Source: Polaromonas sp. (GTDB taxonomy: Bacteria; Pseudomonadota; Gammaproteobacteria; Burkholderiales; Burkholderiaceae_C). From it: 61,828 nucleotides of DNA. The stretch is taken from the NCBI GenBank assembly GCA_031390045.1, contig JANMTB010000106.1:1-61828 (forward strand), given 5' to 3'. Made by a program: the position numbers and the translations under genes. Positions within the stretch are counted from its first letter, which is position 1, and every line of letters starts with the position of its first letter. The notes below the pieces were generated by a model. That model saw nothing but the letters and a program-made list of their open reading frames with translations, was not told the origin of the DNA and searched no databases. Shown here one piece after another: positions 1,412-59,098 of this stretch.

Positions 1412-1462
1412 TATTTGATATACTGTTTATTAATACAGTAATAAATTGCTACCGTCTACAAT
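1412..1462 (-). repeat. degenerate copy A of the dispersed ~50-bp repeat (reverse orientation), just upstream of the parE start
   Basis: ATTTGATAT-N7-ATTAA..AATAAATTGCTACCGTCTACA aligns, with gaps, to the reverse complement of the family consensus. Confidence 0.45.
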
Positions 1463-1470
1463 GCACCGCT

Positions 1471-3450
1471 ATGGCTACCAAACCCGCTTCCAAACCTGCT
1501 GAATATTCCGAAAGCTCGATCCGCGTTTTGAAAGGCCTTGAGCCCGTCAAACAACGTCCCGGCATGTACACGCGGACCGACAACCCGCTGCACGTCATCC
1601 AAGAAGTGCTGGACAACTCGGCAGACGAAGCGCTGGCAGGACATGGCAAAAAGATCAAGGTGACTTTACACAGCGATGGCTCGGTCAGCATCGAAGACGA
1701 TGGTCGTGGCATTCCGTTTGGCATGCACCCGACTGAAAAAGCACCCGTGATTGAGCTGGTGTTCACCCAATTGCACGCCGGCGGTAAATTTGACAAAGGC
1801 AAGGGAGGCGCGTACAGCTTCTCGGGCGGTTTGCATGGCGTGGGTGTGAGTGTGACGAATGCTTTGGCGAAACGCCTAGAAGCCACCAGCTACCGCGAAG
1901 GCTCGGTTGCAAGCCTCGTTTTCTCTGCTGGCGATGTGATTGAACCCTTGAAGGTTCGTAAAACGGGTGAGGGCGACCGCAAAACTGGTACGACGGTGCG
2001 GGTCTGGATCGACCCCAAATACTTTGAAACAGCGCAGTTACCAATGACGGAGCTGATGCACCTGCTGCGCAGCAAAGCGGTGCTGATGCCGGGCGTGACT
2101 GTCACCCTCGTCAACGAAAAAACCAAAGAAACCCAAAACTGGCAATACAAAGGCGGTTTGCGTGATTATTTGATGCAAACGCTTACGGGCGACCCGGTCA
2201 TTCCCTTGTTTGAAGAGGAAGGCTTTGCAGACAGTGCAAGTGAAAGCTTCGCCGAAGGCGAGGGCGCGCAGTGGTGTGTGTCCTTCACCGAAGACGGCTC
2301 GCCGGTGCGCGAAAGCTATGTCAATTTGATTCCCACCAGCGCAGGTGGTACCCATGAAAGCGGTCTACGCGATGGTTTGTTCACAGCTGTCAAAAGCTTC
2401 ATCGACCTACACAGCTTGCTGCCCAAAGGGGTGAAGTTGATGCCAGAAGACGTCTTCGCCCGCGCCAGCTATGTGCTGTCTGCCAAGGTGCTAGACCCAC
2501 AGTTTCAGGGGCAGATCAAAGAGCGCTTGAATTCGCGCGATGCGGTGCGTTTGGTTTCAGGTTTTGTACGTCCTTCATTAGAGCTGTGGCTGAATCAACA
2601 CGTTGATTACGGCAAAAAATTGGCCGAACTCGCCATCAAAGCCGCACAAACCCGTCAAAAAGCGGGTCAAAAGGTTGAAAAGCGCAAAGGCTCTGGTGTG
2701 GCAGTCTTGCCAGGAAAGTTGACCGATTGCGAGAGCAAAGACATTGCCTACAACGAGGTGTTTTTGGTCGAGGGCGACTCCGCTGGCGGCAGTGCCAAAA
2801 TGGGGCGCGACAAAGAAACCCAAGCGATTTTGCCGTTGCGGGGAAAGATTTTGAACACCTGGGAGGTCGAGCGCGACCGTTTGTTTGCCAATACCGAGAT
2901 CCACGACATTTCGGTCGCCATTGGCGTTGACCCACATGGTGCGAGCGATTCGCCAGATTTGACGGGATTGCGCTACGGAAAAATCTGCATTTTGAGTGAT
3001 GCGGACGTGGACGGCTCACACATTCAGGTACTTTTGCTCACACTCTTTTTCAGACATTTCCCCAAATTGATAGAAACTGGGCACATCTACGTAGCGCGAC
3101 CGCCGTTGTTCAGAGTCGATGCGCCAGCGCGCGGTAAAAAACCGGCTTCTAAGGTCTACGCCTTGGATGCTGGCGAGCTTGAGGCGATTTTGGATAAACT
3201 GCGCAAAGACAATGTGAAAGAGGGCGCTTGGAGCATCAGCCGCTTCAAGGGTTTGGGCGAGATGAACGCTGAGCAGCTGTGGGACACCACGCTGAACCCC
3301 GACACCCGCCGCCTGCTACCCGTTGATTTGGGCAAAATGAACTTCAAAGAGACCGAGGATTTGATCACCAAGCTGATGGGCAAAGGCGAAGCAGCAAGTC
3401 GCCGTGAGCTGATGGAGTTGCATGGCGATTCGGTTGAAGTTGATATTTGA
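1471..3450 (+). CDS. parE: DNA topoisomerase IV subunit B
   Basis: GHKL ATPase and Toprim motifs (LEPVKQRPGMYT, EGDSAGGSAK, DADVDGSHI). Start placed at the internal ATG (MATKPAS) because the ORF-track N-terminus lies in the AT-rich repeat. It is paired with parC downstream. Confidence 0.93.
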   Translation: MATKPASKPAEYSESSIRVLKGLEPVKQRPGMYTRTDNPLHVIQEVLDNSADEALAGHGKKIKVTLHSDGSVSIEDDGRGIPFGMHPTEKAPVIELVFTQLHAGGKFDKGKGGAYSFSGGLHGVGVSVTNALAKRLEATSYREGSVASLVFSAGDVIEPLKVRKTGEGDRKTGTTVRVWIDPKYFETAQLPMTELMHLLRSKAVLMPGVTVTLVNEKTKETQNWQYKGGLRDYLMQTLTGDPVIPLFEEEGFADSASESFAEGEGAQWCVSFTEDGSPVRESYVNLIPTSAGGTHESGLRDGLFTAVKSFIDLHSLLPKGVKLMPEDVFARASYVLSAKVLDPQFQGQIKERLNSRDAVRLVSGFVRPSLELWLNQHVDYGKKLAELAIKAAQTRQKAGQKVEKRKGSGVAVLPGKLTDCESKDIAYNEVFLVEGDSAGGSAKMGRDKETQAILPLRGKILNTWEVERDRLFANTEIHDISVAIGVDPHGASDSPDLTGLRYGKICILSDADVDGSHIQVLLLTLFFRHFPKLIETGHIYVARPPLFRVDAPARGKKPASKVYALDAGELEAILDKLRKDNVKEGAWSISRFKGLGEMNAEQLWDTTLNPDTRRLLPVDLGKMNFKETEDLITKLMGKGEAASRRELMELHGDSVEVDI

Positions 3451-3477
3451 ATTGATGTTTAAGTAAAACTGAGAACA

Positions 3478-4404
3478 ATGATGTGGTTTAAGAGTTTATT
3501 GTACTTTATAGGTAAAATTCGCCTGAAGCCGGCGTATTTGTTGCCTCTAATGCTATTATTTTCGCAGCAAAATGCATATGCGGACGTGTGGGGCTACGTC
3601 GATGCCAAAGGCGTTGCTCACTTCGCCGCAGAGCGCGTGGATGACCGTTACGAGTTGTTTTTCAAAGGCGGCGAAAGTTTTGACACTGAGAACGGCGTAT
3701 CGGCCAAACGCAGCGGTGAATCTGCGGCGGGATCGCCCACAGTGGCTACCAAATCTCCAGCCAATGCCAAAATCCTTGCTTATTTTGACGTGTCCACCAA
3801 CTACAAAGCTGTTCGCCACCATATGCGCGAAGCGGCTAAAACTTACAACGTTGATTTTGAGTTGTTGCAGGCCATCATCGTAGCCGAATCAGGTTTTGAC
3901 CACCTTGCTGTGTCACCCAAAGGCGCGATAGGTTTGATGCAGCTGATGCCAGATACCGCCAAGCGCTTTGGCGTGAAGGCTGACAAAAACAAAAGCGTCG
4001 AAGACAAACTACGCGATCCGAAAACCAATATCAATGCTGGTGCTAAGTATTTGCGTGCGTTGATCAATATGTTTCCCGGTAAATTGGAGCTGGCCATAGC
4101 TTCCTACAACGCTGGCGAAGGCGCTGTGCAAAAGTACGGCAACACGATTCCGCCTTACAAAGAAACGCAAAATTACGTCAAAACCGTGGTTCAAACCTTT
4201 TTGGCTATCAAGCCGCCTGTCACGCTGCTACAAGCTAAAGCAGCAGAAAAGTCATTAGCCGCAAGCTCTGCTACTACCGCAAGCAGTGCGCCAAATCGTG
4301 TTCGTATGACGATGGGCGGTGCTGTGGTTGGCGGCGCCGTTGGTCGGGGCAATATGATCGCACCACTGGCAAAAGCTGATTCGGCGACCGTACTAAATCA
4401 ATAA
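3478..4404 (+). CDS. lytic transglycosylase (SLT domain) with signal peptide
   Basis: SLT motifs ESGFD, GLMQLMP and [10 protein letters not shown]-terminal signal ends ...[10 protein letters not shown]. Confidence 0.85.
3526..3573 (+). repeat. copy B of the dispersed repeat, inside the SLT gene (encodes the signal-peptide core)
   Basis: GAAGCCGGCGTATTTGTTGCCTCTAATGCTAT-N7-GCAGCAAAAT, translated in frame as [15 protein letters not shown]. Confidence 0.6.
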
Positions 4405-7165: not shown

Positions 7166-7190
7166 AGAACTAAAAATACTTAAAATATCG

Positions 7191-7244
7191 TTATAGACAC
7201 CGTGTTTATTGCCTAAGCAGCTATTAAAATGATAGTAAATATTT
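7191..7244 (+). repeat. copy C of the dispersed repeat
   Basis: TTATAGACACCGTGTTTATTGCCTAAGCAGCTAT-TAAAATG-ATAGTAAATATTT. It ends 15 nt before the GNAT start. Confidence 0.8.
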
Positions 7245-7259
7245 ACCCATAAAGCATCT

Positions 7260-7715
7260 GTGATCATCAAAATAGACGACCTGCTAGGCTCCGAAATCGC
7301 CAAACTACTGCAAGAGCATTTGGACCATATGTATTCCGTATCCCCAGCCGCCAGCGTGCATGCTTTGGATATTGAAGCCCTGCGCCATCCAGATATTACC
7401 TTTTGGAGCGCCTGGGAAGATAATCATCTATGCGGCTGCGGCGCGATTAAAAAGATTAATAGTGAGTATGCAGAACTTAAATCAATGCGAACTGCAAACG
7501 AGTATCAACGGCAAGGTGTGGCGCTCAACATACTCAATACTGTGATTATTGAAGCTAAAAACCGAGGTTATCAAAAACTATACCTGGAAACCGGCTCACA
7601 ACCGGCTTTCTTTCCAGCCCGCACCCTGTATCTAAACCGTGGCTTTAAACTCTGCGAGCCCTTTGAAGGCTATATTCATGACGAGAACAGCGTTTTTATG
7701 AGTTTTGACTTGTAA
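7260..7715 (+). CDS. GNAT family N-acetyltransferase
   Basis: 151 aa with an acetyl-CoA binding motif (QRQGVALNIL..AKNRGY). GTG start. Confidence 0.8.
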   Translation: MIIKIDDLLGSEIAKLLQEHLDHMYSVSPAASVHALDIEALRHPDITFWSAWEDNHLCGCGAIKKINSEYAELKSMRTANEYQRQGVALNILNTVIIEAKNRGYQKLYLETGSQPAFFPARTLYLNRGFKLCEPFEGYIHDENSVFMSFDL

Positions 7716-7740
7716 ATGCACCAAAATAGAAGATAAATTG

Positions 7741-7794
7741 CCTATAGCCGTTGTATTTATTGGCTTAATAGCATTAATATTTATAGCAAATATT
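7741..7794 (+). repeat. copy D of the dispersed repeat
   Basis: CCTATAGCCGTTGTATTTATTGGCTTAATAGCATT-AATATTT-ATAGCAAATATT. Confidence 0.8.
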
Positions 7795-7800
7795 AATGCT

Positions 7801-13748: not shown

Positions 13749-13766
13749 AACGTATGCAGGTAAGAA

Positions 13767-20409: not shown

Positions 20410-22476
20410 TTAAAAGCGCTGTTTGCCTTGCCACCAGTTCAATACGGCTTTGACCGATTCTTCAATCGATAAATCTGAGTTGTCCAAAAGCTTAGCATCT
20501 TGCGCTGGCTTCAAAGGAGCAACGCTGCGGGAAGAGTCCCGTTCGTCACGCGCTTCAAGGTCTGCACTAAGAACGTCGAGTATAGCTGAAATTCCCTTTG
20601 AAATCAACTGGTTATGGCGCCGTAAAGCACGTTTTTCAGCGCTAGCAGTCAAAAATACCTTCAAAGCGGCGTTAGGGAAGATCACCGTACCCATATCGCG
20701 TCCGTCCGCCACCAAACCGGGCAGGGTGCGAAAGCTGTGCTGCAGCTTCACCAAAGCCTGCCGAACCATAGGCAAAACCGACACTTGCGAGGCGTGCATG
20801 CCGCCCGCTTCAGAGCGGATGTCATGGCTAACATCGTCGCCATTCAGCAAAATGCTGTCACCCTCAAACCTCAAATGAAGTTTTTCAACCAAACTTGTTG
20901 CCAACACAGCGATGGCGATTTCGTCCTTAGGCTCCAAGCTTAAACCCTGCTGCAGCGCCGCAAAAGCAGTCACACGGTATAAAGCTCCCGAATCTAGGTA
21001 GTGGTAGCCCAGTTTTTGAGCTAATTGCGATGCCAAACTGCCTTTGCCAGAGGCGCTGGGGCCATCCACGGTGATGACGGGAATATTCTTTAAGTCAGTT
21101 TCAGCCACCGAAAACAGCGCTTCGAAGTAATCGGGAAAGGTTTTTGCGACGCATTTGGGGTCCAAAATGCGAACTGGTAAACCGGCCGGGTTGAACGCTG
21201 CGATTGAGAAGCACATGGCGACACGGTGGTCGTCATAGGTGTGAATCGGTGCGGTTTTCCAGTCTGCAGCGGTTTTTGGCGGCGTGATACTGATAAAGTC
21301 TACGCCTTCGATGACGGTTGCGCCCAATTTGCGCAATTCTGCAGCCATAGCGGCGATACGATCAGTTTCTTTGACGCGCCAGCTGGCGATGTTGCGCAGC
21401 GTTGTCGTGCCGTCTGCGTAAAGTGCCATCACAGCCAAAGTCATTGCTGCGTCGGGGATATGGTTGCAGTCTAAATCAACCGCTTTTAAGGGCCAAGAGC
21501 CGCGTGAAATTTCAAGGTGATTTGGGCCGCTGTTGACAACCGCACCCATGGCTTGTGCAGCTTCTATGAATCGAATATCGCCCTGAATTGAATCGGCGCC
21601 TACGCCTTCGACGCGAATAGCGTAATTTGTACTATAAACATCATTATTAATGTCATTTTTTGTTATAGCCGTCGTATTTATTGATCCTAATGCTATAAAA
21701 TAGCTAGCAGATGAAGCATCGGCTTCGACGTGAATGCTGCCCGGTGAAACGTACCGGCACCCTTGGGGTATCGTGAACTTTTGCCATCCATCGCGTTGTA
21801 CCTTGATGCCAAAACGCGCTAGTAAATTCAGCGTGATGTCGATGTACGGTTTTGAGATCAGCTCACCTTGCACTTCAAGCACGATATCTTGCGTCGCCAC
21901 CAGAGGCAGCGCAAGGAGTAGAGCAGTCAAAAACTGGCTAGAAACATCGCCACGGACTTTGATCGGCTCATTTAAATGGAAGGATTTTGCAGCCCTAATA
22001 CGTAGCGGCGGGTAGCCATCTTGTCCCAAATAGTCAATCTGACATCCCAATTGGCGCAGTCCATCGACCAAATCACCAATCGGCCGCTCATGCATGCGTG
22101 GCACGCCGCTGAGTTCGAACTCCGTGCTTCCCTTCGCTAACAGCGCTAAAGCAGCCGTTAACGGACGCATTGCCGTGCCAGCGTTGCCCATGTATAGCTT
22201 GGCCGATTGCAAAACCGAATGAATGCCTAAGCCATTGATTTCAATTGAATTTTTGACTAATCCATTGGGTTTTTGGATCGTGCAGCCAAGTTGCGACAGG
22301 GCGGTCAGCATCACCTGCGTGTCGTCTGAATCCAGTAAATCATGCACCGTTGTGGTGCCTTGGCTCAGGGCTGAGAGTAGTAAAACGCGATTAGAAATAC
22401 TTTTCGAACCTGGTAAAACGACTGTGCCGTGAGCGTGACTGAGCGCGGGAATGTCTAAAAAATCGGTATTGAACAT
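20410..22476 (-). CDS. aroA: fused 3-phosphoshikimate 1-carboxyvinyltransferase / cytidylate kinase
   Basis: Residues 1 to about 455 are EPSP synthase ([35 protein letters not shown]). Residues about 460-688 are Cmk ([13 protein letters not shown]). One continuous ORF. Confidence 0.9.
21620..21710 (+). repeat. copy E of the dispersed repeat plus AT-rich flank, embedded in frame in aroA
   Basis: TATAGCCGTCGTATTTATTGATCCTAATGCTAT-AAAATAG-CTAGC on the plus strand. This region encodes an extra stretch of about 16 aa ([20 protein letters not shown]) after the [14 protein letters not shown] motif. Confidence 0.6.
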
Positions 22477-24551: not shown

Positions 24552-24587
24552 TGAATTAGTATGTATTGATTTTTTAGTGTTAAATAT

Positions 24588-24640
24588 GGCTATAGCCGGC
24601 GTATTTATTGCCTAGAGTGCTATTAAATATATAGTAAATT
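24588..24640 (+). repeat. copy F of the dispersed repeat (pheA-gyrA intergenic)
   Basis: GGCTATAGCCGGCGTATTTATTGCCTAGAGTGCTAT-TAAATAT-ATAGTAAAT. Confidence 0.85.
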
Positions 24641-24662
24641 GAAATATTTTTTTTCGTGTTAT

Positions 24663-27600: not shown

Positions 27601-28008
<408 letters not shown>

Positions 28009-30442: not shown

Positions 30443-32171
30443 AAACCTGTTTGGTATAATATTTATAGCATTACAGGCATATATAACGCCGGCTACAGCC
30501 TGTTTTGATGATATTTTTTTAGGTAAATCACTGCAATCACTTCAAAGCAGCTTGCTATATGTTTGGTCACCACGTATGGTGCTGTCTGCCACGCAGGCAC
30601 GACTAGCGGCAGAATCTGCCAAAGCTTTAAATGTGCAGTTTGTCCCTTTGGTCGATGGGCGTATTGCAGCCTCTGAATGGCAATCAGCGCTGCGAACTTT
30701 AGCAACGACGCAGCCGATGGATGCCGAAGTTTTGGCAGCAACCCAAGTGCTTTGTTCCGAAAAATTGATCGAAAAAGATGCTTACACCCACTTTCCGACC
30801 GCTTTTGTCGTGAAAAGTGGGGAAATTCACCCTAATCGACTGATTGGTGCAATGCCAGCTAATTTTTGGCAGCAAGGCATCAACGAGCGTTTGCAAGCTC
30901 GAAAAGATGCCAAAACAGCTGATGTAACTGAAATAGCAGTATCGAATTTGAATCCACAGCAATGCATTCCACAAAATCAATTTATTGCGCTGGATCCGCA
31001 ATTGGCGGGCTTGGACGATGACAATCAAGTGGCATTAGGCGCTTACGAGCGTATCAGCCCTGATGGACGGTATGTGCTGCGCTCTTATTCAGGTAAAAAA
31101 CTGTCAGCGGTGAGCTTGGTGGAGTTGCCTGGGCCTGCGGGATTGACGGCAATCAAGGGCCAAATCAGCCGTCAAAAAATCACTTCAACACCGTTTTCTA
31201 ACGAAGCTTTTCCCGTGCAAGGCAGCTGGCGGTATCTGGTTGATACGAATGGTGATCACTATACTTTTAATAGCATACTAGGCAATAAATACGTCGGTAA
31301 AAACACAATTAAACCACTTTTTTCAGGTGGCATGGATGGCTTTTATGCGGCTGCGGCTGAAGTGGTTGGCGCGTACCCATTGCGGGATAGTAAACCGGTA
31401 CAGATACGCTCACTCAGCTGGCCCAATGCGAATGGCGGTAGTTCAAATACATCAGACCAGCAAGGCATGGGCATGCTGACATCGCGCACACTCTCAGTGA
31501 ATGGCACAGCGAATCAAATCAGCTCTGACACAGGACGTATCAATCACTGCATGGATCGTTTGTCGCAAGATGGTTCTATGTATGCGCTACCGATGATTTC
31601 GGTAGATGGCCAAGAATTTGCCGCCTTGCCGCAAAACCCTATCTCCGGCGTGCCCACCATGCGCATTTTCCGTTTCGGTGCTGATGGCAAGCGGTGCGAG
31701 CCGGTTGGGCAGTTCACTTTGCAGTCTGGCAAGGTGATTTTTGGCTTCTCATCTGCAGCAAAAAAGCATGCTGATGTGGCTTATGAGTACCGTGGGCAGG
31801 TTTGGTGGGTGCAGCGCAATAACAGCGGGAAACCGCAGTTGCCTCTCAATTTAGCACCTTGGGAAGATCCAGCTGTCGCCGGTAATAAAGCCAATCCGGC
31901 TTACAAAGACGTCACTGCCAACGCCTTTCCGGGCTTTACTCGCGATGGCCGCGTCATTTACGCAGCCAATTGGAAGCGTTGTGTGGGCGCAAACATGGGC
32001 AAAGACTGCACACAAGAGGGCGGTTATGTCGTCTCCGACCCTTATCAAAGCAATGCCTACCGTGCTGAGTTGATAAAAAACAGTTCAAAAGCGCCCAAAA
32101 GCTGCATCACAGTACAAGAAGTTGCCAATGAACGGACCGCTTTTGCCGCGTTTCACAGCATTTTGGACTGA
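30429..32171 (+). CDS. hypothetical secreted protein: degenerate thioredoxin-like N-domain plus TolB/PD40-like beta-propeller-like region
   Basis: 580 aa. Signal- or lipoprotein-like N-terminus (..ITPATAC). Trx-fold-like segment without CxxC (LYVWSPRMVLS ... FPTAFVVKSGEI). Repeated xxDGxxx motifs (SPDGRYVL, SQDGSMYAL, FTRDGRVIY). Confidence 0.55.
   Translation: MAIYKNLFGIIFIALQAYITPATACFDDIFLGKSLQSLQSSLLYVWSPRMVLSATQARLAAESAKALNVQFVPLVDGRIAASEWQSALRTLATTQPMDAEVLAATQVLCSEKLIEKDAYTHFPTAFVVKSGEIHPNRLIGAMPANFWQQGINERLQARKDAKTADVTEIAVSNLNPQQCIPQNQFIALDPQLAGLDDDNQVALGAYERISPDGRYVLRSYSGKKLSAVSLVELPGPAGLTAIKGQISRQKITSTPFSNEAFPVQGSWRYLVDTNGDHYTFNSILGNKYVGKNTIKPLFSGGMDGFYAAAAEVVGAYPLRDSKPVQIRSLSWPNANGGSSNTSDQQGMGMLTSRTLSVNGTANQISSDTGRINHCMDRLSQDGSMYALPMISVDGQEFAALPQNPISGVPTMRIFRFGADGKRCEPVGQFTLQSGKVIFGFSSAAKKHADVAYEYRGQVWWVQRNNSGKPQLPLNLAPWEDPAVAGNKANPAYKDVTANAFPGFTRDGRVIYAANWKRCVGANMGKDCTQEGGYVVSDPYQSNAYRAELIKNSSKAPKSCITVQEVANERTAFAAFHSILD
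30451..30500 (-). repeat. copy G of the dispersed repeat (reverse), forming the 5' end of the 30429 ORF
   Basis: TTGGTATAATATTTATAGCATTACAGGCATATATAACGCCGGCTACAGCC is the reverse complement of the family consensus. It translates as FGIIFIALQAYITPATA. Confidence 0.7.
31258..31304 (-). repeat. copy N of the dispersed repeat (reverse), in frame in the middle of the 30429 ORF
   Basis: ACTATACTTTTAATAGCATACTAGGCAATAAATACGTCGGTAAAAAC, translated as FNSILGNKYVGKN. Confidence 0.55.
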
Positions 32172-32233: not shown

Positions 32234-32618
32234 GGGGCTGCACTGGTTTCGACGCGGGTACGGACGCGCAGTGGGGCATGCCGAGCTTGGATCATGCTCG
32301 TTAAATTCGATTCAAAAACTTAACTGCAAACGACGAACGTTTCGCACTCGCTGCTTAATTGCACGTGAGCTCTACAACAGCAGGCCGATGGGCTGGGCAA
32401 GGGTGATTTAGCAATAAATCGTCCAGGCTGTGGAGTCATTTTCATCGGCTGGTTTGAACCTGGGCACCTTAGGTTTGAACGAGACAATAGGGCGCTGGCG
32501 GACTTTGTAGCGTGCTCCTGCGCGACAAGGCGAGTGAGATACAAATCAGACGGCTAAGCATGTAGATCTACGCGAAAAAGTCTTGTGGACGCGGGTTCAA
32601 ATCCCGCCAGCTCCACCA
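32234..32618 (+). ncRNA. ssrA: tmRNA (SsrA)
   Basis: 5' GGGGCTGCACTGGTTTCGACG. Tag reading frame at 32326..32358 is GCAAACGACGAACGTTTCGCACTCGCTGCTTAA (ANDERFALAA stop). tRNA-like 3' end is GGACGCGGGTTCAAATCCCGCCAGCTCCACCA. Confidence 0.93.
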
Positions 32619-32636
32619 TTTATATGGTAAATATCG

Positions 32637-32687
32637 CTCTAACCGGCATATTTATTGCCTATATAGCTATAAAAAATATAGCATATT
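32637..32687 (+). repeat. copy H of the dispersed repeat, 19 nt after the tmRNA 3' end
   Basis: CTCTAACCGGCATATTTATTGCCTATATAGCTAT-AAAAAAT-ATAGCATATT. Confidence 0.75.
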
Positions 32688-32705
32688 ATCACTATATTTT
32701 TTATC

Positions 32706-33371
32706 ATGACACAAACCCTTTCCATCGTGATGCTAGGGGCCAGCGGTGCAGTAGGCGGCGTTGCTGCACTAGCGCTCAGCCAATTGCCCGAAATCAAACA
32801 GCTAACGTTGCTCAATCGAAAAGAACTTCCAGCACTTTTATTACCGAAGGTGATACAACTCATCCGTGATGTCACTGACCCTAAAGATTATTCGCAGTTT
32901 CTAAGCGGTCACCAAGTGGCCATATGTTGCCTAGGCGTGGGGCAACCTTCTAAAGTTAGCAAAGTAGAGTTTGTCAAAATTGACAAAACAGCTGCACTCG
33001 CTTTTGCAACTGCCTGCAAGCAAGCGGGTGTGCGGCATTTTCAGCTGCTTAGCGCTGTGGGCGCCGATGCAAAATCGAACAGCCATTACCTGCAAACCAA
33101 AGGCGAGCTGCAAGATGCCATCATTGCCTTGGGTTTTGAGCGGACGAGCTTCTTTCAGCCTTCCATGATTTTGACGCCGACCAACCGCTATGGTTTCTCT
33201 CAAGGCGTCATGCTAGCGGTGTGGCCATCGCTGTCGGCGGTATTGCAAGGTGGTTTGCGTAAATACCGTGGCATCAATGTCGCGACACTTGGTTGCGCTA
33301 TCGCTAAAAACGTTATCACAGCCGGACAAGGTCTAGAAATCTTGCGTTGGGATCAAATAAACAGCCTATAG
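32706..33371 (+). CDS. NAD(P)H-binding Rossmann-fold protein (atypical SDR / HTATIP2-like)
   Basis: 221 aa. N-terminal VMLGASGAVGG dinucleotide-binding motif. The last codons and the stop lie in repeat copy I. Confidence 0.7.
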   Translation: MTQTLSIVMLGASGAVGGVAALALSQLPEIKQLTLLNRKELPALLLPKVIQLIRDVTDPKDYSQFLSGHQVAICCLGVGQPSKVSKVEFVKIDKTAALAFATACKQAGVRHFQLLSAVGADAKSNSHYLQTKGELQDAIIALGFERTSFFQPSMILTPTNRYGFSQGVMLAVWPSLSAVLQGGLRKYRGINVATLGCAIAKNVITAGQGLEILRWDQINSL

Positions 33372-33416
33372 CCGGCGTATTTATTGCCTAAGCAGCTATT
33401 ATAAATATAGCTATTT
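33365..33416 (+). repeat. copy I of the dispersed repeat (near-consensus)
   Basis: CCTATAGCCGGCGTATTTATTGCCTAAGCAGCTAT-TATAAAT-ATAGCTATTT. Confidence 0.9.
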
Positions 33417-33460
33417 AGGCGTTTAAAACACTGAATTACAACGCTGCATTAATACCTACA

Positions 33461-42208: not shown

Positions 42209-43804
42209 ATGCGTTTTAGCGTCGTTTGGTTCAAGCGTGATTTGCGCGTTGCAGACCATGCAGCTTTACAAGCAGCCGCCCAACGCGGCCCCGTTTTATG
42301 CCTATACGTGATCGAGCCCAGTGTTTGGGTGCAGTCTGATGCGGCTCACCAGCACTACTTATTTTTGCTTGAAAGCTTACGCGATTTAGACGCTGATTTA
42401 CGCCGTTTAGGTGGGAAATTGCATGTTTTATCCGGCGAATTTGTTGATGTTTTAGCTAGATTATTTATAGCAAATTCTTTTGTAGCAGTTTACGCGCACG
42501 AAGAAACGGGCAACGGCATCACTTATAAGCGCGACTTAGCTGTGGGGCAATGGTGCAATTCGCACAATGTTGAATTTTTTGAATTCAGACAATTTGGCGT
42601 GGTGCGCAAACTCAAAAATCGCAGCGATTGGAAAAGCCATTGGGACAAGCATGTTCGCTCGCTCATTTTGCCAGTGCCAGATGCGGTGCAACTGCAATTC
42701 GTGCCGCTACCTTGGCATGCAGCTTTGCTTCCAAGTCCTGTAAAGCTAGGTCTAATTACTGATGTGAAGTTACCAACGCCGAAGCAACGCCAACTGGGTG
42801 GTCGTCGTTTGGGTCTAGAGGTTTTGCAAGATTTTTTGAACGACAGAAGCGCGCAATATCGCGGCGGTATTTCGTCGCCATTGTCCGCCCCAACCGCGTG
42901 TTCTCGGCTCTCGCCATATTTAGCTTTTGGCTGTGTTAGCTTACGCGAAGTGGTGCAATCCACTTACCATGCCATTGCAGAGTTACCAGCAGGAAATTGG
43001 CAAAAAAAGGGTTTGGTTGCCTTTGTCAGCCGTTTGTACTGGCATTGCCATTTCATTCAAAAGTTAGAGTCAGAGCCGACGCTTGAATACCAAAACGTGC
43101 ACCGAGGCTACGACGGCTTACGTGAAAACGATTGGAACCCAGCTCATTTTGAGGCTTTGACCACCGCTCGCACTGGCTGGCCGCTGGTCGATGCCTGCGT
43201 GGTGATGCTCCGCGAGACGGGCTGGCTCAACTTTCGTATGCGCGCCATGTTGGTATCTGTTGCCGCTTACCCGCTGTGGCTGCACTGGCAGCTTGTGGGG
43301 CAATGGCTGGCGCGGCAGTTTTTGGACTACGAGCCGGGCATCCACTGGAGCCAGATGCAAATGCAATCTGGCACGACGGGTATCAACACCACGCGGGTTT
43401 ACAACCCCATCAAACAAGCGCAAGACCACGACCCGTACGGTTATTTCGTGCGCCGCTGGTTGCCTTATATGCGACGCGTGCCAGATGCTTGGCTGTTCGA
43501 GCCGTGGCGCATGCCGCAAGTGATGCAAGAGCATTTGAAATTGACCATTGGCATAGGCGGAGAATTTGACATCCCAGAGCCGGTAGTCGACCTGCAAACC
43601 GCCACCCGAGAAGCCAAAGCCAAGCTTCATGGACGACGCGCACAGCCCGAAGTGAAAGCAGGCAAAGCCTCGATTGTTGAAAAGCATGCTTCAAGATCGA
43701 CGACGAGGACTAAAAAACCAACATCGACAAAAACGGCTACGACAATGACGCGCAGAGAAGCAACGATTAAAACCGAAAACCAACAAATTGCCTTGGATTT
43801 CTAG
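42209..43804 (+). CDS. cryptochrome/photolyase family protein (class unresolved) with a Lys/Thr-rich C-terminal extension
   Basis: 531 aa. Photolyase N-terminus ([16 protein letters not shown]) and FAD-binding domain ([36 protein letters not shown]). Confidence 0.85.
42431..42476 (+). repeat. possible copy Q of the dispersed repeat inside the photolyase-family gene
   Basis: TCCGGCGAATTTGTTGATGTTTTAGCTAG-ATTATTT-ATAGCAAATT. Hand alignment gives about 30 of 41 matches to copy M. No obvious length insertion in the protein. Confidence 0.45.
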
Positions 43805-43818
43805 ATTCCCCTGTTTTT

Positions 43819-43983
43819 ATGAAAATGATCAAAAAAGCCAACTTACCCAGCAAAGTCTGTATCCACTGCCAGCGCCCATTCACATGGCGTAAAAAGTGGG
43901 AAAAGGTATGGGACGATGTGAAATACTGCTCTGATCGCTGCCGGATGAGCTATTCCGGAAGTAAGGGCGACAAGAAAGTATGA
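43819..43983 (+). CDS. DUF2256 small zinc-ribbon protein (54 aa, absent from the ORF track)
   Basis: [54 protein letters not shown] has the CxxC..WRKKW..YCSxRC pattern. Its stop overlaps the ATG of the next gene (ATGA). Confidence 0.7.
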
Positions 43984-45191: not shown

Positions 45192-45204
45192 ATACAAAAG
45201 CGTT

Positions 45205-45257
45205 AAATTATGCTATGATTATTATAGCTGTTTATGAAATAAATACGCCGGCTACAG
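45205..45257 (-). repeat. copy J of the dispersed repeat (reverse)
   Basis: AAATTATGCTATGATTATTATAGCTGTTTATGAAATAAATACGCCGGCTACAG. Confidence 0.8.
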
Positions 45258-45305
45258 TCATAAGTACCTCTAAAAATTAGTCAATATTAACAATTTAAGG
45301 TAAAT

Positions 45306-48881: not shown

Positions 48882-49688
48882 ATGAGCAAAATGATGCATT
48901 TAGAAGATATTCTGTATACCCAAGGCTTCGGCACGCGCCGTGTGTGCGCGGGTTTGATTGAAAAAGGGTTGGTAGAGGTCTATTTAGAGGATAAATCTTC
49001 ATCAGCCGGCGTATTTGTTGCCAAGATAGCTATGGATAATGTAGCAAATTACGTTACAAAAGGATTCCGCTTTCGGGTGCAAGGCGTTGATTGGGAATAC
49101 CACGAGATGGCTTATGTGCTGTTTAACAAACCTACAGGCAGCGAATGCTCTCAAAAGCCGTCCATGCACCCCAGCATCTACACCTTTTTGCCGTCGCCGT
49201 TGCGTCTACGTCCGCAAAAAAGCGCGATTCAAGGCGTGCAGGCTGTTGGGCGATTGGACCAAGACACCACGGGTATGCTGTTGATGAGTGACGATGGCCA
49301 GTTCATTCACCGCATGAGTTCGCCGAAAAAGCACGTGTCCAAGGTCTATGAAGTGATCACCAAACACCCGTTGGACGACAAACAACTGCAAAAGCTGCTC
49401 GCTGGTGTCGTTTTGGACGATGACCCGAAGCCCGTCAAAGCCGCAGCGGCCGAAATAATCTCTGAGCATCACATTAAACTCACTTTGACAGAGGGCAAAT
49501 ACCACCAAGTCAAGCGGATGCTGGCGGCTGTGAGCAACCGCGTGGAGGGGCTGCACAGATCGCAAATTGGTGGTTTGAAGCTGCCGGACGACCTGTTGCC
49601 AGGTCAATGGCGCTGGCTCAATGAGGCGGATATGGCGTTGATGCTTAGCTCGCCATCTTCACAAATGACTCAAAGTAAGGCTGAATGA
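48882..49688 (+). CDS. RsuA-family rRNA pseudouridine synthase
   Basis: S4-like N-terminus, catalytic GRLDQDTTGMLL, and EGKYHQVKRM. The true start may be the ATG at 48894. Confidence 0.82.
   Translation: MSKMMHLEDILYTQGFGTRRVCAGLIEKGLVEVYLEDKSSSAGVFVAKIAMDNVANYVTKGFRFRVQGVDWEYHEMAYVLFNKPTGSECSQKPSMHPSIYTFLPSPLRLRPQKSAIQGVQAVGRLDQDTTGMLLMSDDGQFIHRMSSPKKHVSKVYEVITKHPLDDKQLQKLLAGVVLDDDPKPVKAAAAEIISEHHIKLTLTEGKYHQVKRMLAAVSNRVEGLHRSQIGGLKLPDDLLPGQWRWLNEADMALMLSSPSSQMTQSKAE
49002..49050 (+). repeat. copy O of the dispersed repeat, in frame in the rsuA-like gene
   Basis: TCAGCCGGCGTATTTGTTGCCAAGATAGCTAT-GGATAAT-GTAGCAAATT, translated as SAGVFVAKIAMDNVANY. Confidence 0.65.
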
Positions 49689-50503: not shown

Positions 50504-51912
50504 CGATTGGCATGATTACAAATACGAAGACAAATACGAAAACATTGAAGAAGTTGCTGATTGCCGCTGCCAGTGTGCTAGCGGGTAGTGCGATTGTGGG
50601 TGCTTGGGCTGTGGCTCAAACCACGACTCAGCCGACTGTTCCAGCTAATCAGTCGACGCTTAAAAAAGAATCAAATTTGGCTGCAGCCGGCGCATCTGTT
50701 GCCTCTGGAGCTATTAATACAGTAGCAGGAATGCCTGCTGTGGTTGATCCTAAAAACCTCTACAGCGAGACTGTATCGAGCAAAATGAGCCCCGCTGTTG
50801 AGGGCGCTTTGGAGCGCGTGTATGTACCGAATCGCGGTGAAAACACAGTCTCGGTGATTGACCCGAACACACTAAAAGTTATCGACAAATTCAAAGTCGG
50901 CATCAACCCGCAGCACGTCGTACCGTCGTGGGATTTGGGCACGCTGTGGGTGGCGAACAATGCCGAGGGCCGCACCGACGGTAGCTTGACACCCATCAAC
51001 CCGAAAACGGGAAAATCTGGCAAATCCATCCCTGTAGATGACCCGTACAACCTGTATTGGTCAACAGACGGCAAATTTGCGATCGTGGTGGCAGAGGCCT
51101 ACAAACGCCTTGATTTCCGCGATGCGAAGACCATGGAGATGAAGTTCACGATACCTACGCCTTTGTGCGCTGGCATCAACCATGCAGATTTTTCGATTGA
51201 CGGCAAATTTGCGGTATTCACCTGCGAATTCAACGGCTCCATCACCAAAATCGACTTGGTGAACCGCAAGGTGCTTGCAACAGTCAAACTCAATGCGTAT
51301 TTTGACCGTCCTAACGCCTTGGCGGCCATTGCAAAAGTCAACCCGACTGCAACCAGCGCACTGAGCACAAAAATGCGTTACATTGCAGACCCCGACAGTC
51401 CAGGCTCGCAAATTTGTACCACGCCAGGTATGCCGCAAGATGTGCGGATTTCGCCTGATGGTTCTACTTTTTATATTGCCGATATGATGGTCGACGGTGT
51501 GCATGTGGTGGATGGTGAGTCGTTCAAGCAAACTGGTTTCATTCCTACGGGTAAGGGTGCACACGGCATTTACCCTAGCCGCGATGGCAAAAGTTTTTAT
51601 GTCGCCAACCGTGGCAGTAACAAAATTCGGGGCACACCGAATGGTCCTGGCAGCGTTTCCGTGGTGGATTTTGCAACCAAAAAAGTCACTAAAACGTGGG
51701 CCATTCCTGGCGGTGGCAGCCCTGACATGGGCAACGTCAGCGTAAATGGTAAATACCTATGGCTGGGTGGCCGCTATGACGACACCGTGTACCGTTTTGA
51801 TACCGATACGGGCGCGGTAGACAAAATCAAGGTTGGCCGCGAGCCGCATGGCTTGACGGTTTGGCCACAACCAGGTCGTTACTCATTAGGTCATACCGGT
51901 AATTTGCGCTAA
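50500..51912 (+). CDS. YVTN-type beta-propeller repeat protein, secreted
   Basis: 470 aa. Signal peptide, then repeated YV(A/P)N-like blades (VYVPNRGENTVSVID, LWVANN, FYIADM, FYVANRGSN). Confidence 0.7.
   Translation: MTIGMITNTKTNTKTLKKLLIAAASVLAGSAIVGAWAVAQTTTQPTVPANQSTLKKESNLAAAGASVASGAINTVAGMPAVVDPKNLYSETVSSKMSPAVEGALERVYVPNRGENTVSVIDPNTLKVIDKFKVGINPQHVVPSWDLGTLWVANNAEGRTDGSLTPINPKTGKSGKSIPVDDPYNLYWSTDGKFAIVVAEAYKRLDFRDAKTMEMKFTIPTPLCAGINHADFSIDGKFAVFTCEFNGSITKIDLVNRKVLATVKLNAYFDRPNALAAIAKVNPTATSALSTKMRYIADPDSPGSQICTTPGMPQDVRISPDGSTFYIADMMVDGVHVVDGESFKQTGFIPTGKGAHGIYPSRDGKSFYVANRGSNKIRGTPNGPGSVSVVDFATKKVTKTWAIPGGGSPDMGNVSVNGKYLWLGGRYDDTVYRFDTDTGAVDKIKVGREPHGLTVWPQPGRYSLGHTGNLR
50681..50730 (+). 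repeat. copy P of the dispersed repeat, in frame in the YVTN gene
   Basis: CTGCAGCCGGCGCATCTGTTGCCTCTGGAGCTAT-TAATACA-GTAGCAGGA, translated as AAGASVASGAINTVAG. Same frame as copy O. Confidence 0.6.
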
Positions 51913-52950: not shown

Positions 52951-52993
52951 AGTTCACCGTATAAAAATCGGCACTTATTTCAACAAGATTGCG

Positions 52994-53046
52994 ATCTAGC
53001 CGGCGCATTTATTGCCTAAGCAGCTATCATAAACATAGCAAATATT
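52994..53046 (+). repeat. copy K of the dispersed repeat
   Basis: ATCTAGCCGGCGCATTTATTGCCTAAGCAGCTAT-CATAAAC-ATAGCAAATATT. Confidence 0.85.
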
Positions 53047-53085
53047 AAAAGTCTAGTTTTGGATAATTTTATATGGATTTGACGA

Positions 53086-53135
53086 CTTAGCCGGCGTGAT
53101 TATTCATATATTTGCTATCAATTCGATAGTAAAAA
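53086..53135 (+). repeat. copy L of the dispersed repeat (diverged), 40 nt after copy K
   Basis: CTTAGCCGGCGTGATTATTCATATATTTGCTAT-CAATTCG-ATAGTAAAAA. Confidence 0.65.
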
Positions 53136-53210
53136 GGTATTCTCTGTTATTTGTCTGCATAACCTTTTAATGATCTCCCTGAAGATTGTCCCTGTAAACT
53201 TGACCCATTT

Positions 53211-54056: not shown

Positions 54057-54075
54057 TGACCATACCCATGTTTAT

Positions 54076-57383: not shown

Positions 57384-57430
57384 CTCATCTTTGATCGATT
57401 CTTGGCAGCCACTGGAAGGCAAGTAAGTAC

Positions 57431-59035
57431 ATGAAGCCCATTTGGATCGTAGATGATGACCAATCCATCCGCTTCGTTTTAGAAAAAGCACTGCTGCGCG
57501 AAAGCCTGCCCACGCGCAGTTTTACCAACCCGCGCGATGTGCTCACCGCACTCGCAGAGCTTGAAGTTGGCAGTGACCAAAATTCCGAGTTGGGGCCGCA
57601 AATTTTGGTCAGCGACATCCGCATGCCCGGTGGCTCGGGCTTGGATTTGCTTGAAAAAGTCAAACAAAAATTCCCCGGTTTGCCCGTCATAATCATGACG
57701 GCGTATTCTGACTTGGACAGTGCCGTGTCTGCCTTCCAAGGTGGCGCGTTTGAGTATTTGCCCAAACCGTTTGATGTGCCCAAAGCCGTGGAGCTGATTC
57801 GCCGCGCGGTGGACGAAAGCCTGCGTGAAGAGGTGGCTGAAGAGCGCATGGTGGCAGCGCCCGAAATGTTGGGCCAAGCGCCTGCCATGCAGGACGTCTT
57901 TCGCGCTATCGGCAAATTGAGTCAAAGCAATGTCACAGTGATGATCACCGGCGAAAGCGGCACCGGTAAAGAGCTGGTTGCCCGCGCTTTGCACAAACAT
58001 TCGCCACGCGGTGATGTGACGAAATCTGCGGCTAAAACGGGCTCAAATTTGCTGCCAACACTGACCCGCGAAGGCCCGTTTGTCGCCATCAACACCGCAG
58101 CCATCCCCAAAGATTTGTTGGAGAGCGAGCTTTTTGGCCACGAGCGCGGCGCTTTCACAGGCGCGCACACCATGCGCCGTGGCCGCTTTGAGCAGGCCGA
58201 TGGCGGCACCCTGTTTTTAGACGAAATTGGCGACATGCCGTTTGATTTACAAACACGGCTGCTTCGGGTGCTCAGTGACGGTCATTTCTACCGTGTCGGT
58301 GGCCACACAGCGATCAAAACCAATGTTCGCGTCATCGCCGCGACGCATCAAGACCTGGAGCAGCGCGTCAAAGAGGGCGGTTTTAGGGAAGACTTGTTCC
58401 ACCGCTTGAACGTCATTCGCCTGCGTCTGCCCGCTTTACACCAGCGTCGTGAAGACATTCCGATGCTGTCTAAGCACTTTCTCATACAAAGCGCCAAACA
58501 GCTAGGCGTCGAGCCTAAGCGTTTTACTGAGGCGGCTTTGGCGCAGTTGGCGGGTTTTAGTTTTCCAGGCAATGTGCGCCAGCTAGAGAATATCTGCCAT
58601 TGGCTCACCGTGATGGCGCCTAGCCAAGTGATCGAGCCCAAAGACTTACCGCCAGAAGTGCAGGGTTCGTCCATGAATGCCTATCACGCAGAAGCGATGT
58701 CACAACTTGCATCGCATCCTGAACCTGAAATAGTCGCTCGACCTGAGTCTGCTGAAGGTATCTCCTACAAAGGTATGCCAGAAGTTCAGCCCGAGCGCGT
58801 AGTGATGTCGAATGACGGCAATTGGGAACTTGGCATGGCCAAAGTCGCTAAAGAGCTATTGGCGACTGAGCGGACTGATGTGTGGGACGAGATGACGCGT
58901 CGCTTTGAATCGCATTTGATTCAAGCTGCTTTGCTAAGCACCAAAGGCCGCCGCGTTGATGCAGCGCATAAATTAGGCATTGGCCGCAACACCATCACGC
59001 GCAAGATTCAAGAATTAGGTTTAGACAAAGAGTAA
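57431..59035 (+). CDS. glnG: nitrogen regulation response regulator NtrC (sigma-54 activator)
   Basis: Receiver domain (VDDDQSIR, SDIRMPG), AAA+ domain (GESGTGKE, GAFTGA, ..FLDEIGDM) and Fis-type HTH (GIGRNTITRKIQEL). Confidence 0.92.
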   Translation: MKPIWIVDDDQSIRFVLEKALLRESLPTRSFTNPRDVLTALAELEVGSDQNSELGPQILVSDIRMPGGSGLDLLEKVKQKFPGLPVIIMTAYSDLDSAVSAFQGGAFEYLPKPFDVPKAVELIRRAVDESLREEVAEERMVAAPEMLGQAPAMQDVFRAIGKLSQSNVTVMITGESGTGKELVARALHKHSPRGDVTKSAAKTGSNLLPTLTREGPFVAINTAAIPKDLLESELFGHERGAFTGAHTMRRGRFEQADGGTLFLDEIGDMPFDLQTRLLRVLSDGHFYRVGGHTAIKTNVRVIAATHQDLEQRVKEGGFREDLFHRLNVIRLRLPALHQRREDIPMLSKHFLIQSAKQLGVEPKRFTEAALAQLAGFSFPGNVRQLENICHWLTVMAPSQVIEPKDLPPEVQGSSMNAYHAEAMSQLASHPEPEIVARPESAEGISYKGMPEVQPERVVMSNDGNWELGMAKVAKELLATERTDVWDEMTRRFESHLIQAALLSTKGRRVDAAHKLGIGRNTITRKIQELGLDKE

Positions 59036-59047
59036 ATAGATAAAAAT

Positions 59048-59098
59048 GGCTATAGCCGGCGTATTTATTGCCTAAGCAGCTATATTATTTATAGCGTT
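59048..59098 (+). repeat. copy M of the dispersed repeat (near-consensus), overlapping the xthA stop codon
   Basis: GGCTATAGCCGGCGTATTTATTGCCTAAGCAGCTAT-ATTATTT-ATAGCGTT. Confidence 0.9.

Follow-up and report, generated by a model that had tools for sequence, protein, structure and literature searches.

Among the repeats described for the Comamonadaceae, including Polaromonas, BRE is a unit of about 90 bp with 69% GC, which forms head-to-tail tandem arrays of variable number and lies mostly in intergenic regions, sometimes in open reading frames (ORFs) (PMC3110155). In P. naphthalenivorans CJ2, a motif survey of 2017 reported the pair ATAGCT(N)22CAAAAG in 125 copies, of which 101 are intergenic and 34 are placed between convergent genes, about 50 bp from the genes (PMC5217627); the survey gave the two hexamers only and assigned to them no function, structure or link to gene cassettes (PMC5217627). 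Here we analyse a repeat element, named R, from a contig of Polaromonas sp. (JANMTB010000106.1), all 61,828 nucleotides of which are called the window below. By function, the closest known system is the arrangement of integron cassettes and their attC sites, although R is not a member of it by the tests presented here. With modest confidence, we regard R as a selectively maintained, oriented site of about 70 bp, marking the junctions where gains and losses of chromosomal gene cassettes take place.

The CJ2 pair, read on the other strand as CTTTTG-N22-AGCTAT, has the same spacing and the same genomic distribution as CTnTAG-N22-AGCTAT in R. As far as the reported hexamers permit a comparison, it probably represents the same family in a higher-GC relative, and this family has probably been glimpsed before and never characterised. 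R differs from BRE in its GC content (about 30%), its length (about 70 nt) and its dispersed location, and the description of BRE sets it apart as a different family.

The preliminary description of the window suggested a family of about 17 copies, and the family is genuine, its frequency being far above chance. The 20-mer TAGCCGGCGTATTTATTGCC, with up to three mismatches, occurs 11 times in the window versus 0.01 expected, and 63-nt copies of the same family are recovered by ungapped repeat finding. An nhmmer profile trained solely on 114 copies from other genomes gives 14 strong copies in the window (the term "strong" is used for nhmmer E<=1.2e-6), with E-values from 1.2e-6 to 2.8e-18 and a density of 1 per 4.4 kb, while it gives zero matches at E<=10 in 10 block-shuffled windows. 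A covariance model made later returns the same list of copies. The strong copies coincide with the forward sites proposed at 3526, 7191, 7741, 21663, 24588, 32637, 33365, 49002, 50681, 52994 and 59048 and with the reverse sites at 30451, 31258 and 45205; the profile search of the window revealed no strong copy that had been overlooked. The sites at 53086 and 42431 are weak or degenerate, and the reverse site at 1412 is matched by none of the searches and is not R.

In an alignment of 212 copies on the core, the information of R spans about -25 to +45 and amounts to 75.6 bits in total, so that the unit measures about 70 nt and not the 50 bp supposed previously. Its left part is AT-rich, with an A/T run at -25 to -20, AAAT at -13 to -10 and the motif GnCTnTA. 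The near-invariant core is TAGCCGGCGTATTTATTGCCT, which is read from the 212-copy alignment as GCCGGCGTATTTATTGCCT; the longest invariant stretch comprises about 23 nt and is asymmetric. The core is followed by 4-5 variable nucleotides and then by GCTAT, a 7-nt A/T spacer, ATAGC and AAAT. Terminal inverted repeats are absent, as had been noted, since the 70-nt unit does not have complementary ends, but there are three internal palindromes: GGCTnTAGCC, GGCG-N7-TGCC ("P2") and GCTAT-N7-ATAGC ("P3").

R is an oriented, selected site. Neighbouring copies 0.5-3 kb apart are co-oriented in the ratio 59:13, or 53:11 once overlapping loci are collapsed (p=1e-7), versus 12:16 for neighbours 3-10 kb apart (Fisher p=3e-4 against the short range). 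Adjacent pairs closer than 150 nt are rare (1/116), and neighbours are mostly direct. The orientation of R is unrelated to the flanking genes, to GC skew and to the majority gene strand. Replication-linked polarity was rejected in particular, the skew on the copy's strand being close to zero (mean 0.003±0.003) and the loci agreeing and disagreeing in the ratio 39:36.

The co-oriented copies part single genes or gene pairs, and the number of such units differs among relatives, which is an integron-like organisation; this link of R to cassette arrays had gone unnoticed in the preliminary description. It is seen at the GNAT locus (window 6.8-8.0 kb), where the order in the window is a BV97_02767-like ORF (6812-7165), R, the GNAT acetyltransferase gene (7260..7715, plus strand; Pfam Acetyltransf_1), R and a CoA-transferase gene (7801-8988, minus strand), both R copies having the same direction. 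The left-boundary copy (7166..7245, plus strand; nhmmer E 9.9e-9; covariance model 63 bits) marks a site that is occupied in 6/6 haplotypes of the locus. The right-boundary copy (7717..7796, plus strand; nhmmer E 1.2e-6; covariance model 64 bits) faces the 3' end of the CoA-transferase gene, and it is at this site that the extra cassettes of the relatives sit.

The related contigs and stretches compared with the window are labelled by L-numbers, and those for the GNAT locus were fetched via close homologues of the window GNAT. They reveal six haplotypes, in which between one and six "gene + R" units are present, with co-oriented R between all the units. The window and L207 carry GNAT alone (H1), L200-L206 carry GNAT and the ORF X of 102 aa (H2), and L197-L199 carry GNAT, Y (93 aa), X, isochorismatase, NIPSNAP and a periplasmic binding protein (H3). 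GNAT is followed by isochorismatase in L209 and L210 (H4) and by X and a 102-aa gene in L218-L221 (H6), and in L212 a 345-aa gene replaces the BV97-like ORF ahead of GNAT (H5). Several of these haplotypes were assembled independently from different samples. In addition, the exact stretches shared by R copies (up to about 35 nt) are shorter than the largest k-mer implied by the k141 contig names, so that we consider assembly chimeras unlikely.

The second variable locus (window 32.2-33.4 kb) consists of the tmRNA gene (32234..32618, plus strand; ARAGORN; Rfam RF00023, 173 bits), R, a gene for an NAD(P)H-binding protein (32706..33371, plus strand; Pfam NAD_binding_10), R and ggt, the two R copies again being co-oriented. 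The left copy (32612..32691, plus strand; nhmmer E 2.1e-13) comes directly after the tmRNA. The right copy (33341..33420, plus strand; nhmmer E 3.9e-17) provides the TAG stop of the NAD(P)H-binding gene and faces the 3' end of ggt (minus strand); it has counterparts in L213, L214 and L215. In L216, a SIR2_2 gene (1263 aa) and a further R are placed between the post-tmRNA copy and the NAD(P)H-binding gene, in L213 and L217 a DEAD helicase gene precedes R and this gene, and in L214 they are preceded by a 181-aa gene, HTH_39 and a toxin-antitoxin pair.

Among all the genes enclosed by co-oriented copies, 49 run on the strand of R and 33 on the opposite one. Their products include GNAT, glyoxalase/bleomycin resistance, HigB, MazF, HicB and CopG proteins, the HI1420-type antidote, Xre-type HTH, DUF1801, DUF1697, GFA, tautomerase and RhuM proteins, a TIR effector and an RHS tip, as well as two adjacent DUF1272 paralogues that are 83% identical. 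These functions are typical of integron cassettes. Some cassette genes have a very low GC content (0.34-0.41); the trend towards low GC is not significant for the cassette genes (p=0.17). Separately, we observed a gene for a 606-aa SbmA-like ABC transporter in one Polaromonas MAG (L082:1251-3071), in the very place where another (L107:3569-3691) has just R between convergent genes; a degenerate R-like match (33 bits) falls in the conserved C-terminal motif AIISIAHR of this transporter.

Between haplotypes, homology breaks off within R, in the interval from the core to the right arm of P3. At the GNAT locus the neighbours change while X (95-96%) and isochorismatase (93%) keep their protein identity. 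On the 5' side of X, homology between haplotypes begins at the right arm of P3 (ATAGCAAATATTTTATTAA...), and on the 3' side it extends over the left part of the next R and its core and stops at P3. The crossover can be placed no finer, since the three haplotypes with X disagree as to which unit, upstream or downstream, the spacer moves with. At the tmRNA locus, the left part of the copy at 32612 has the rare TAACC variant found in the post-tmRNA copy of L216, and its right (P3) part resembles the copies that precede the NAD(P)H-binding gene elsewhere. It is therefore a left/right hybrid of the two copies which flank the SIR2 insert of L216, as expected for exchange within R. Both copies flanking the 345-aa insert of L212 have an identical P3, including the rare arm GCTAC. 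Between GNAT and isochorismatase, at L209:2760-2800, P3 is tandemly duplicated (AGCTAC TAAATTA ATAGC TAC TAAATTA ATAGC), which may have been left by recombination or by slippage. Identical P3 spacers occur in 4/50 pairs of flanking copies versus 1.7% expected (p=0.011).

One can suggest the following scheme. Two copies of R would undergo recombination at some point from the core to the right arm of P3; when a circle with the gene or genes and one R meets a resident R, the product would be R-gene-R, its two copies pointing the same way. Repeated insertions would build co-oriented arrays, and the reverse reaction would remove units. P3, with its two inverted arms of 5-6 bp and a 7-bp spacer, may represent a core-type crossover site, the asymmetric core giving the direction. 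The sequence TTGCCT-N16-TATAG(C/T), which is built into R and was picked up by a promoter scan, may act as a promoter for the downstream co-oriented cassette, and the lone copies between housekeeping genes may be unoccupied or ancient docking sites. Recombination between a circle and R would explain the co-orientation at the scale of cassettes, the randomness at larger scale and the independence from gene direction. We think that a dedicated or co-opted site-specific recombinase which reads P3 and the core is likelier than RecA alone. More tentatively, as a possibility to which we would give less than an even chance, R could be the site of an undescribed chromosome-wide cassette system, a "distributed integron", in which a recombinase other than IntI would insert and excise "gene + R" circles, exchanging strands at GCTAT-N7-ATAGC, several hundred to about 1,000 oriented docking sites would be spread among housekeeping genes, the asymmetric 23-nt core would give direction and R itself would supply the promoter of the arriving gene.

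Several observations weigh against R being a site of cassette recombination. Most copies are single and lie between or inside housekeeping genes, at sites that are stable across species, which fits a structural or regulatory site equally. No cassette was found at two different loci, and the ORFan X is confined to the GNAT locus; the extent demonstrated here is local gain, loss and shuffling only. No recombinase could be linked to R and no integrase was found in the window, while the sole integron integrase found (in L079) has GC-rich canonical attC sites unrelated to R and the sole RAYT found (in L086) is flanked by a different repeat. A classical tyrosine recombinase requires identical overlap regions, and the P3 spacers, which mostly differ between the copies flanking a cassette, are awkward for such an enzyme. 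RecA acting on the 23-nt invariant core could give equally precise junctions. It should be added that all the comparative data come from metagenome-assembled genomes (MAGs) and metagenome contigs.

The position of R relative to genes was determined by a simple ORF-based gene call on 136 intergenic copies; about 75% of all copies are intergenic and about a quarter overlap ORFs. The intergenic contexts are tandem same-sense (44), tandem antisense (36), convergent (44) and divergent (12). The usual distance to the nearest stop codon is 20-40 nt, and 80/136 copies face a gene 3' end while 56/136 face a gene start. The placement at gene ends, the avoidance of promoter regions and an orientation independent of transcription and of GC skew argue against a promoter, a terminator, an RNA element of 3'-untranslated regions and a replication-polar site.

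These data bear on the possibility that R is a site bound by a host protein and serves to part transcription units, whether for a nucleoid-associated protein, as an insulator or roadblock, or as a promoter/terminator module; accessory genes would tend to be bracketed by R since every unit with its own expression requires a copy. Strong purifying selection across 75.6 bits would be expected of such a site, as would the three small palindromes and the AT-rich tracts with their weak helical phasing (autocorrelation 0.14 at lags 9-11, i.e. a periodicity of 9-11 bp). R is located at gene ends, canonical intrinsic terminators are not above chance in this genome (35 vs 29 expected), R contains the promoter-like sequence mentioned above, and in both window arrays it lies just 5' of co-oriented cassette genes. 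However, its orientation is independent of the flanking genes (44 vs 36 in tandem contexts), most of the intergenic copies face a 3' end, and neither co-oriented arrays nor breakpoints inside R are predicted by protein binding. The putative -10 box has a G at -8 that is 95% conserved and a C at -7 in the majority of copies; the palindrome, not a promoter function, explains these conserved G and C residues. On the whole, we regard a binding site of this type as a decidedly unlikely explanation.

Three specific regulatory candidates were rejected. For a sigma-70 promoter of the flanking genes, the orientation is unrelated to genes and the G and C of the "-10" box belong to the palindrome. An intrinsic terminator is contradicted by the lack of a stable hairpin, the terminator-like sites of the region being at chance level. 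The core has GG-N10-GC (CGGCGT-ATTTA-TTGCC), which is the spacing of the -24/-12 elements of sigma-54 promoters, but matches only 7/12 consensus positions. One near-consensus copy (59025..59104, plus strand; nhmmer E 1.2e-17) comes right after a sigma-54 activator gene (57431-59035), between it and the convergent ORF 59089-59931. We judge the sigma-54 spacing coincidental because the orientation of R is random relative to genes.

The age of R and the selection on it can be judged from 23 orthologous pairs of copies between species. Their conserved positions are 90% identical, their variable positions 57% (random copy pairs 45%) and their ungapped flanks 39%. The near-consensus copy in the pheA-gyrA spacer (24565..24644, plus strand; nhmmer E 2.8e-18) has an orthologue in L034 that is nearly identical through the core and P3, while the flanks are about 78% identical or unalignable. 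Since the conserved positions are held and the variable ones nearly randomised, the copies are old and under purifying selection (or continuing homogenisation) rather than recently spread. Copies can also be lost: L059 retains only the left 15 nt of a copy that is complete in L063 and L047, and L072 is without this copy altogether, its flanks being unalignable there. The former is an internal deletion, and no clean filled-versus-empty pair was found from which a target-site duplication could be defined.

R had been described as having no coding capacity. This is right for the family, which is non-coding, but six strong window copies lie in or overlap ORFs and are translated there, several of them in or just past signal peptides. 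The copy 3498..3577 (plus strand; nhmmer E 1.7e-13; covariance model 65 bits) overlaps the SLT transglycosylase ORF 3478-4404 at its 5' end, in the signal-peptide region, and is translated in frame; the start of the SLT gene carries an equivalent copy in haplotypes L197, L204 and L218. The copy 30444..30523 (minus strand; nhmmer E 2.1e-8), antisense to the hypothetical ORF 30429-32171, is located in the signal peptide at the 5' end of this ORF, gives the translation LFGIIFIALQAYITPATA and has counterparts in L214 and L216. A further antisense copy lies within the same ORF (31249..31328, minus strand; nhmmer E 6.9e-10; covariance model 57 bits). In the YncE-like beta-propeller ORF 50500-51912, the copy 50656..50735 (plus strand; nhmmer E 3.2e-11) forms amino acids 54-77 right behind the signal peptide, with the translation LKKESNLAAAGASVASGAINTVAG. 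The start region of the pseudouridine synthase ORF 48882-49688 includes the translated copy 48975..49054 (plus strand; nhmmer E 5.9e-11). The copy 21638..21717 (plus strand; nhmmer E 3.9e-7), read antisense, coincides with a 16-aa insertion in aroA relative to solved EPSP synthases and occupies the same place in L034 (76% DNA identity). This insertion and the copies in signal peptides show that R was at some time inserted into pre-existing sequence. The ORF which contains the aroA copy (20410-22476, minus strand) is in itself unusual, EPSP synthase (aroA) and cytidylate kinase (cmk) being joined in one 688-aa ORF, apparently by gene fusion.

Such insertions raise the possibility that R is a selfish or neutral repeat, similar to REP elements or MITEs (transposable elements of the miniature inverted-repeat type), which spread in an ancestor and then served as a 70-bp homology for unequal exchange by RecA between direct copies, whereby the genes in between are deleted, duplicated and re-inserted, the cassettes being a by-product. 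A dispersed repeat of about 1 copy/4 kb, placed mostly 20-40 nt past stop codons, with convergent spacers enriched and divergent ones rare, fits this explanation. So do the in-frame copies, which sit in tolerant parts of proteins (signal peptides, the aroA loop) and in this recall Rickettsia palindromic elements, the partly deleted copy in L059 and the segmental duplication of DUF1272 plus R in L012. Homologous exchange would also place junctions inside R equally well. Against these points stand the identity of orthologous copies, which is 90% at conserved positions and near random at variable ones and indicates selection rather than neutral decay, and the lack of terminal inverted repeats and of an association with RAYT. 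A spread similar to transposition gives no cause for the 53:11 co-orientation, and RecA acting on direct repeats should deplete such pairs, not enrich them. The longest invariant stretch (about 23 nt) is, moreover, close to or under the length that RecA usually needs to exchange DNA efficiently. We consider the selfish-repeat explanation unlikely, though it deserves more weight than the binding-site one.

The window has about 50% GC and the tmRNA tag ANDERFALAA, and a stretch of 3.1 kb in it shares 96% identity with a contig (L010) of the Polaromonas MAG VAR_48_metabat_379. An exact 18-mer scan of species-representative genomes matched at least 110 stretches; once some 9 chance matches in unrelated phyla are set aside, these belong to at least 20 genomes, so the family extends to related genomes as anticipated in the preliminary description. 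The labels of the R-bearing genomes are Polaromonas (glacier-fed stream, glacier and other cold sites), Burkholderiaceae TF_9, Ca. Aalborgiella, Rhodoferax and Comamonadaceae. The profile gives 232 copies in 789 kb of the listed stretches, all of them selected for carrying the repeat, and 13 copies in 48 kb of contigs chosen without regard to R. Because the density is alike in the latter, the earlier guess of hundreds of copies per genome is probably correct; for Polaromonas genomes of about 4 Mb (bioRxiv 10.64898/2026.02.18.706520), extrapolation would give a number of the order of 1,000. Relatives found through the ggt protein (about 80% protein identity, GC 54-72%) have zero copies in 222 kb; their gene order diverges beyond ggt and they are uninformative on empty sites. 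Looking up one window protein by exact identity gave short contigs only.

R is absent from PLSDB plasmids and GenBank phages according to BLAST, and a plasmid or phage origin was rejected for lack of matches in these two collections. Four predicted viral contigs of IMG/VR hold the exact 18-mer, and three of them (L193, L195, L196) have full R copies of up to 59 bits; these copies probably lie in host flanks of proviruses, but may be phage-borne.

A lineage-specific, chromosome-wide repeat absent from plasmid and phage collections resembles a DNA uptake signal of natural transformation, such as the uptake signal sequence (USS) of Pasteurellaceae and the DNA uptake sequence (DUS) of Neisseria, which uptake bias would keep near its consensus and with which acquired genes would arrive. 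In agreement with this, R has AT tracts after its GC core, is oriented either way with respect to genes and is also present in coding regions. However, USS and DUS cores comprise 9-12 nt and carry several-fold less information than the approximately 76 bits of R over 70 nt. Co-oriented neighbours and breakpoints inside R are not predicted by an uptake signal, and about three quarters of the copies are intergenic. Competence is not documented for the R-bearing organisms in the literature consulted. Even if the CJ2 motif pair were a "dialect" of such a signal (PMC5217627), we would consider DNA uptake a very improbable role for R.

Another role to be weighed is that of a small structured RNA, or an RNA element internal to transcripts, encoded by R. 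The variation of P3 is strand-asymmetric, with G:T 62 and T:G 34 versus A:C 3 and C:A 6 on the top strand; P2 has a fixed G:T pair (G6:T14), and 97% of the P2/P3 cells are paired. G-U pairs are thus kept on the top strand only, as would be expected for RNA, but the asymmetry may equally come from asymmetric protein contacts or from single-stranded DNA. The conserved stems are only 4-5 bp long, and no compensatory double changes were found in P2/P3. Folding as a single strand is no better than for shuffled sequences in 6/7 copies (z +0.4 to -1.4), and a long hairpin between the left arm and the core was rejected, its pairing being at background level in every register. The search of Rfam proposed previously gave no match to R: in the window only the tmRNA is above the gathering threshold, and around two copies there is nothing meaningful at E<=10. 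Together with a random orientation relative to transcription, these results leave little room for an RNA element, and we hardly expect R to be one.

Among the other window copies, the copy 52969..53048 (plus strand; nhmmer E 1.4e-15) lies 3' of the CysZ-like gene 51952-52950 and is followed in tandem by the degenerate copy 53060..53139 (plus strand; nhmmer E 0.012; covariance model 25 bits, E 9e-5), located 5' of the MoCF gene 53211-54056; the start-to-start distance of the two is 92 nt rather than the 40 nt reported initially. The copy 45203..45282 (minus strand; nhmmer E 2.3e-13; covariance model 70.5 bits) is situated between a photolyase gene (43980-45191) and a photolyase-related gene (45306-46898). 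A doubtful degenerate copy (42399..42480, plus strand; nhmmer E 0.86; covariance model 24.5 bits) within the photolyase gene 42209-43804 may be a chance match or a decayed copy. The region 42209-46898 is in fact a row of three consecutive photolyase-family genes, for a photolyase, a truncated-looking photolyase and a photolyase-related DPRP protein, with R between the second and third and the degenerate copy inside the first.

Other repeats of the window are distinct from R. A direct repeat of 300 nt (27595-27894 and 28111-28410, 80% identical) extends over the starts of the ORFs 27601-28008 and 28117-28812 and has a TGCTCC-type run, which would encode Ala/Pro-rich low complexity; the two genes look paralogous. 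Tandem repeats of the GCAGCTTTTGC type, degenerate and with a period of 12-24 nt, occupy 13759-14177 within an ORF and probably encode an Ala/Lys-rich repetitive protein; a similar repeat is present at L079:7237-7530. The inverted similarity of 276 nt between 4680-4955 and 26856-27131 (72%) represents the paralogy of parC (4446-6794, plus strand) and gyrA (24663-27323, minus strand), not a repeat element.

If R is a true recombination site, it would represent a second, independent solution to the integron task of capturing and shuffling single genes, with a different architecture of the site, no linked integrase, and docking sites throughout the core genome instead of one platform. This would alter the view of the turnover of accessory genes, including defence genes (SIR2, TIR) and toxin-antitoxin pairs, in a genus which is dominant in glacier and glacier-fed-stream microbiomes and which is considered to have diversified through horizontal transfer (bioRxiv 10.64898/2026.02.18.706520). 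With a site of 70 nt, two variable loci already mapped and relatives that can be cultivated, this can be tested directly. If the exchange is driven only by RecA, R would nevertheless organise local genome plasticity as a conserved, selected repeat, and would be a useful marker of variable slots in MAGs.

The comparison with known systems supports the earlier opinion that R is not REP/BIME, ERIC, Correia or CRISPR; it is without the defining features of REP/RAYT elements and MITEs. With REP/BIME and REPIN-RAYT elements it shares a short length, a location beyond stop codons, abundance, lineage specificity and a tetranucleotide (xTAG) ahead of a small palindrome, but its palindromes are tiny, AT-rich and without significant folding, and inverted doublets are absent. 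It was also rejected as the REP of a RAYT, because the inverted copies on either side of the RAYT of L086 belong to a different 21-mer, AATTAGGGTCAGATTCCAATT. This second family is absent from the window and is represented by 12 copies in 789 kb of related loci; its copies (L086:1631-1651 and 2472-2492, and in L009, L036, L073, L083, L097 and L098) often form inverted pairs about 60 nt apart. Being inverted around the RAYT-type Y1 transposase gene L086:1758-2480 (minus strand), it looks like a classical REPIN-RAYT system. Similar to Correia elements, other MITEs and Rickettsia palindromic elements, R is dispersed, non-autonomous and intergenic, with some in-frame copies (aroA, SLT, YncE-like). 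It differs from them in the absence of terminal inverted repeats, in the stability of orthologous sites across species and in the selection on its conserved positions.

Two further systems resemble R in their short inverted arms. The dRS3 elements of Neisseria, with the inverted pair ATTCCC-N8-GGGAAT, occur in hundreds of copies per genome at the boundaries of mosaic segments and are points of integration and rearrangement, where they bound non-coding repeat units and prophages. Like dRS3 and the intergenic mosaic elements, R has a short inverted pair with a fixed spacer (GCTAT-N7-ATAGC), but it bounds arrays of single genes and adds a 23-nt invariant asymmetric core; the sequences are unrelated. 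In the Xer-dependent pdif modules and IMEX, genes are placed between short core-type sites which have two inverted arms and a spacer of 6-8 nt and alternate in orientation. R also brackets genes, and a host recombinase could act on it in the same way; however, P3 with its flanks matches the proteobacterial dif arms poorly by eye (about 7/11 for the XerD arm), the P3 spacer is 7 nt and not 6, and R arrays are co-oriented.

The integron requires the closest comparison. A canonical attC was rejected, R differing from it in every feature tested: the RYYYAAC...GTTRRRY pair is absent, with the columns flanking P3 pairing in only 24-34% of the 212 copies; the GCCTAAG-like and TTAGGC-like words stand in the wrong order for attC, with little information left of -13; and there is no long imperfect hairpin, the folds of 6/7 copies being no better than those of shuffled sequences. 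A bona fide chromosomal integron was observed in Ca. Aalborgiella aggregata (L079:770-4150), with a 336-aa intI on the minus strand, an attI region with the repeated CATGTTAGGGCG (GTTAGGG repeats) and small ORFs with GC-rich canonical attC between them; one copy of R follows immediately on the 3' end of this intI, and the array has none. No intI or attI adjoins the R arrays, which have 1-6 units and are scattered chromosome-wide among housekeeping genes together with single sites estimated at several hundred to about 1,000, and their cassette genes run either way relative to R (49:33). At the same time, R arrays resemble integrons in the unit itself, in which one or two small, mostly accessory genes are followed by a conserved repeat of recombination type, most of which lies 3' of the gene with the junction near its 3' end. 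The repeats of an array are co-oriented, the number of units varies among close relatives at one site, and the cargo has the same spectrum of GNAT, glyoxalase, toxin-antitoxin, DUF and defence genes.

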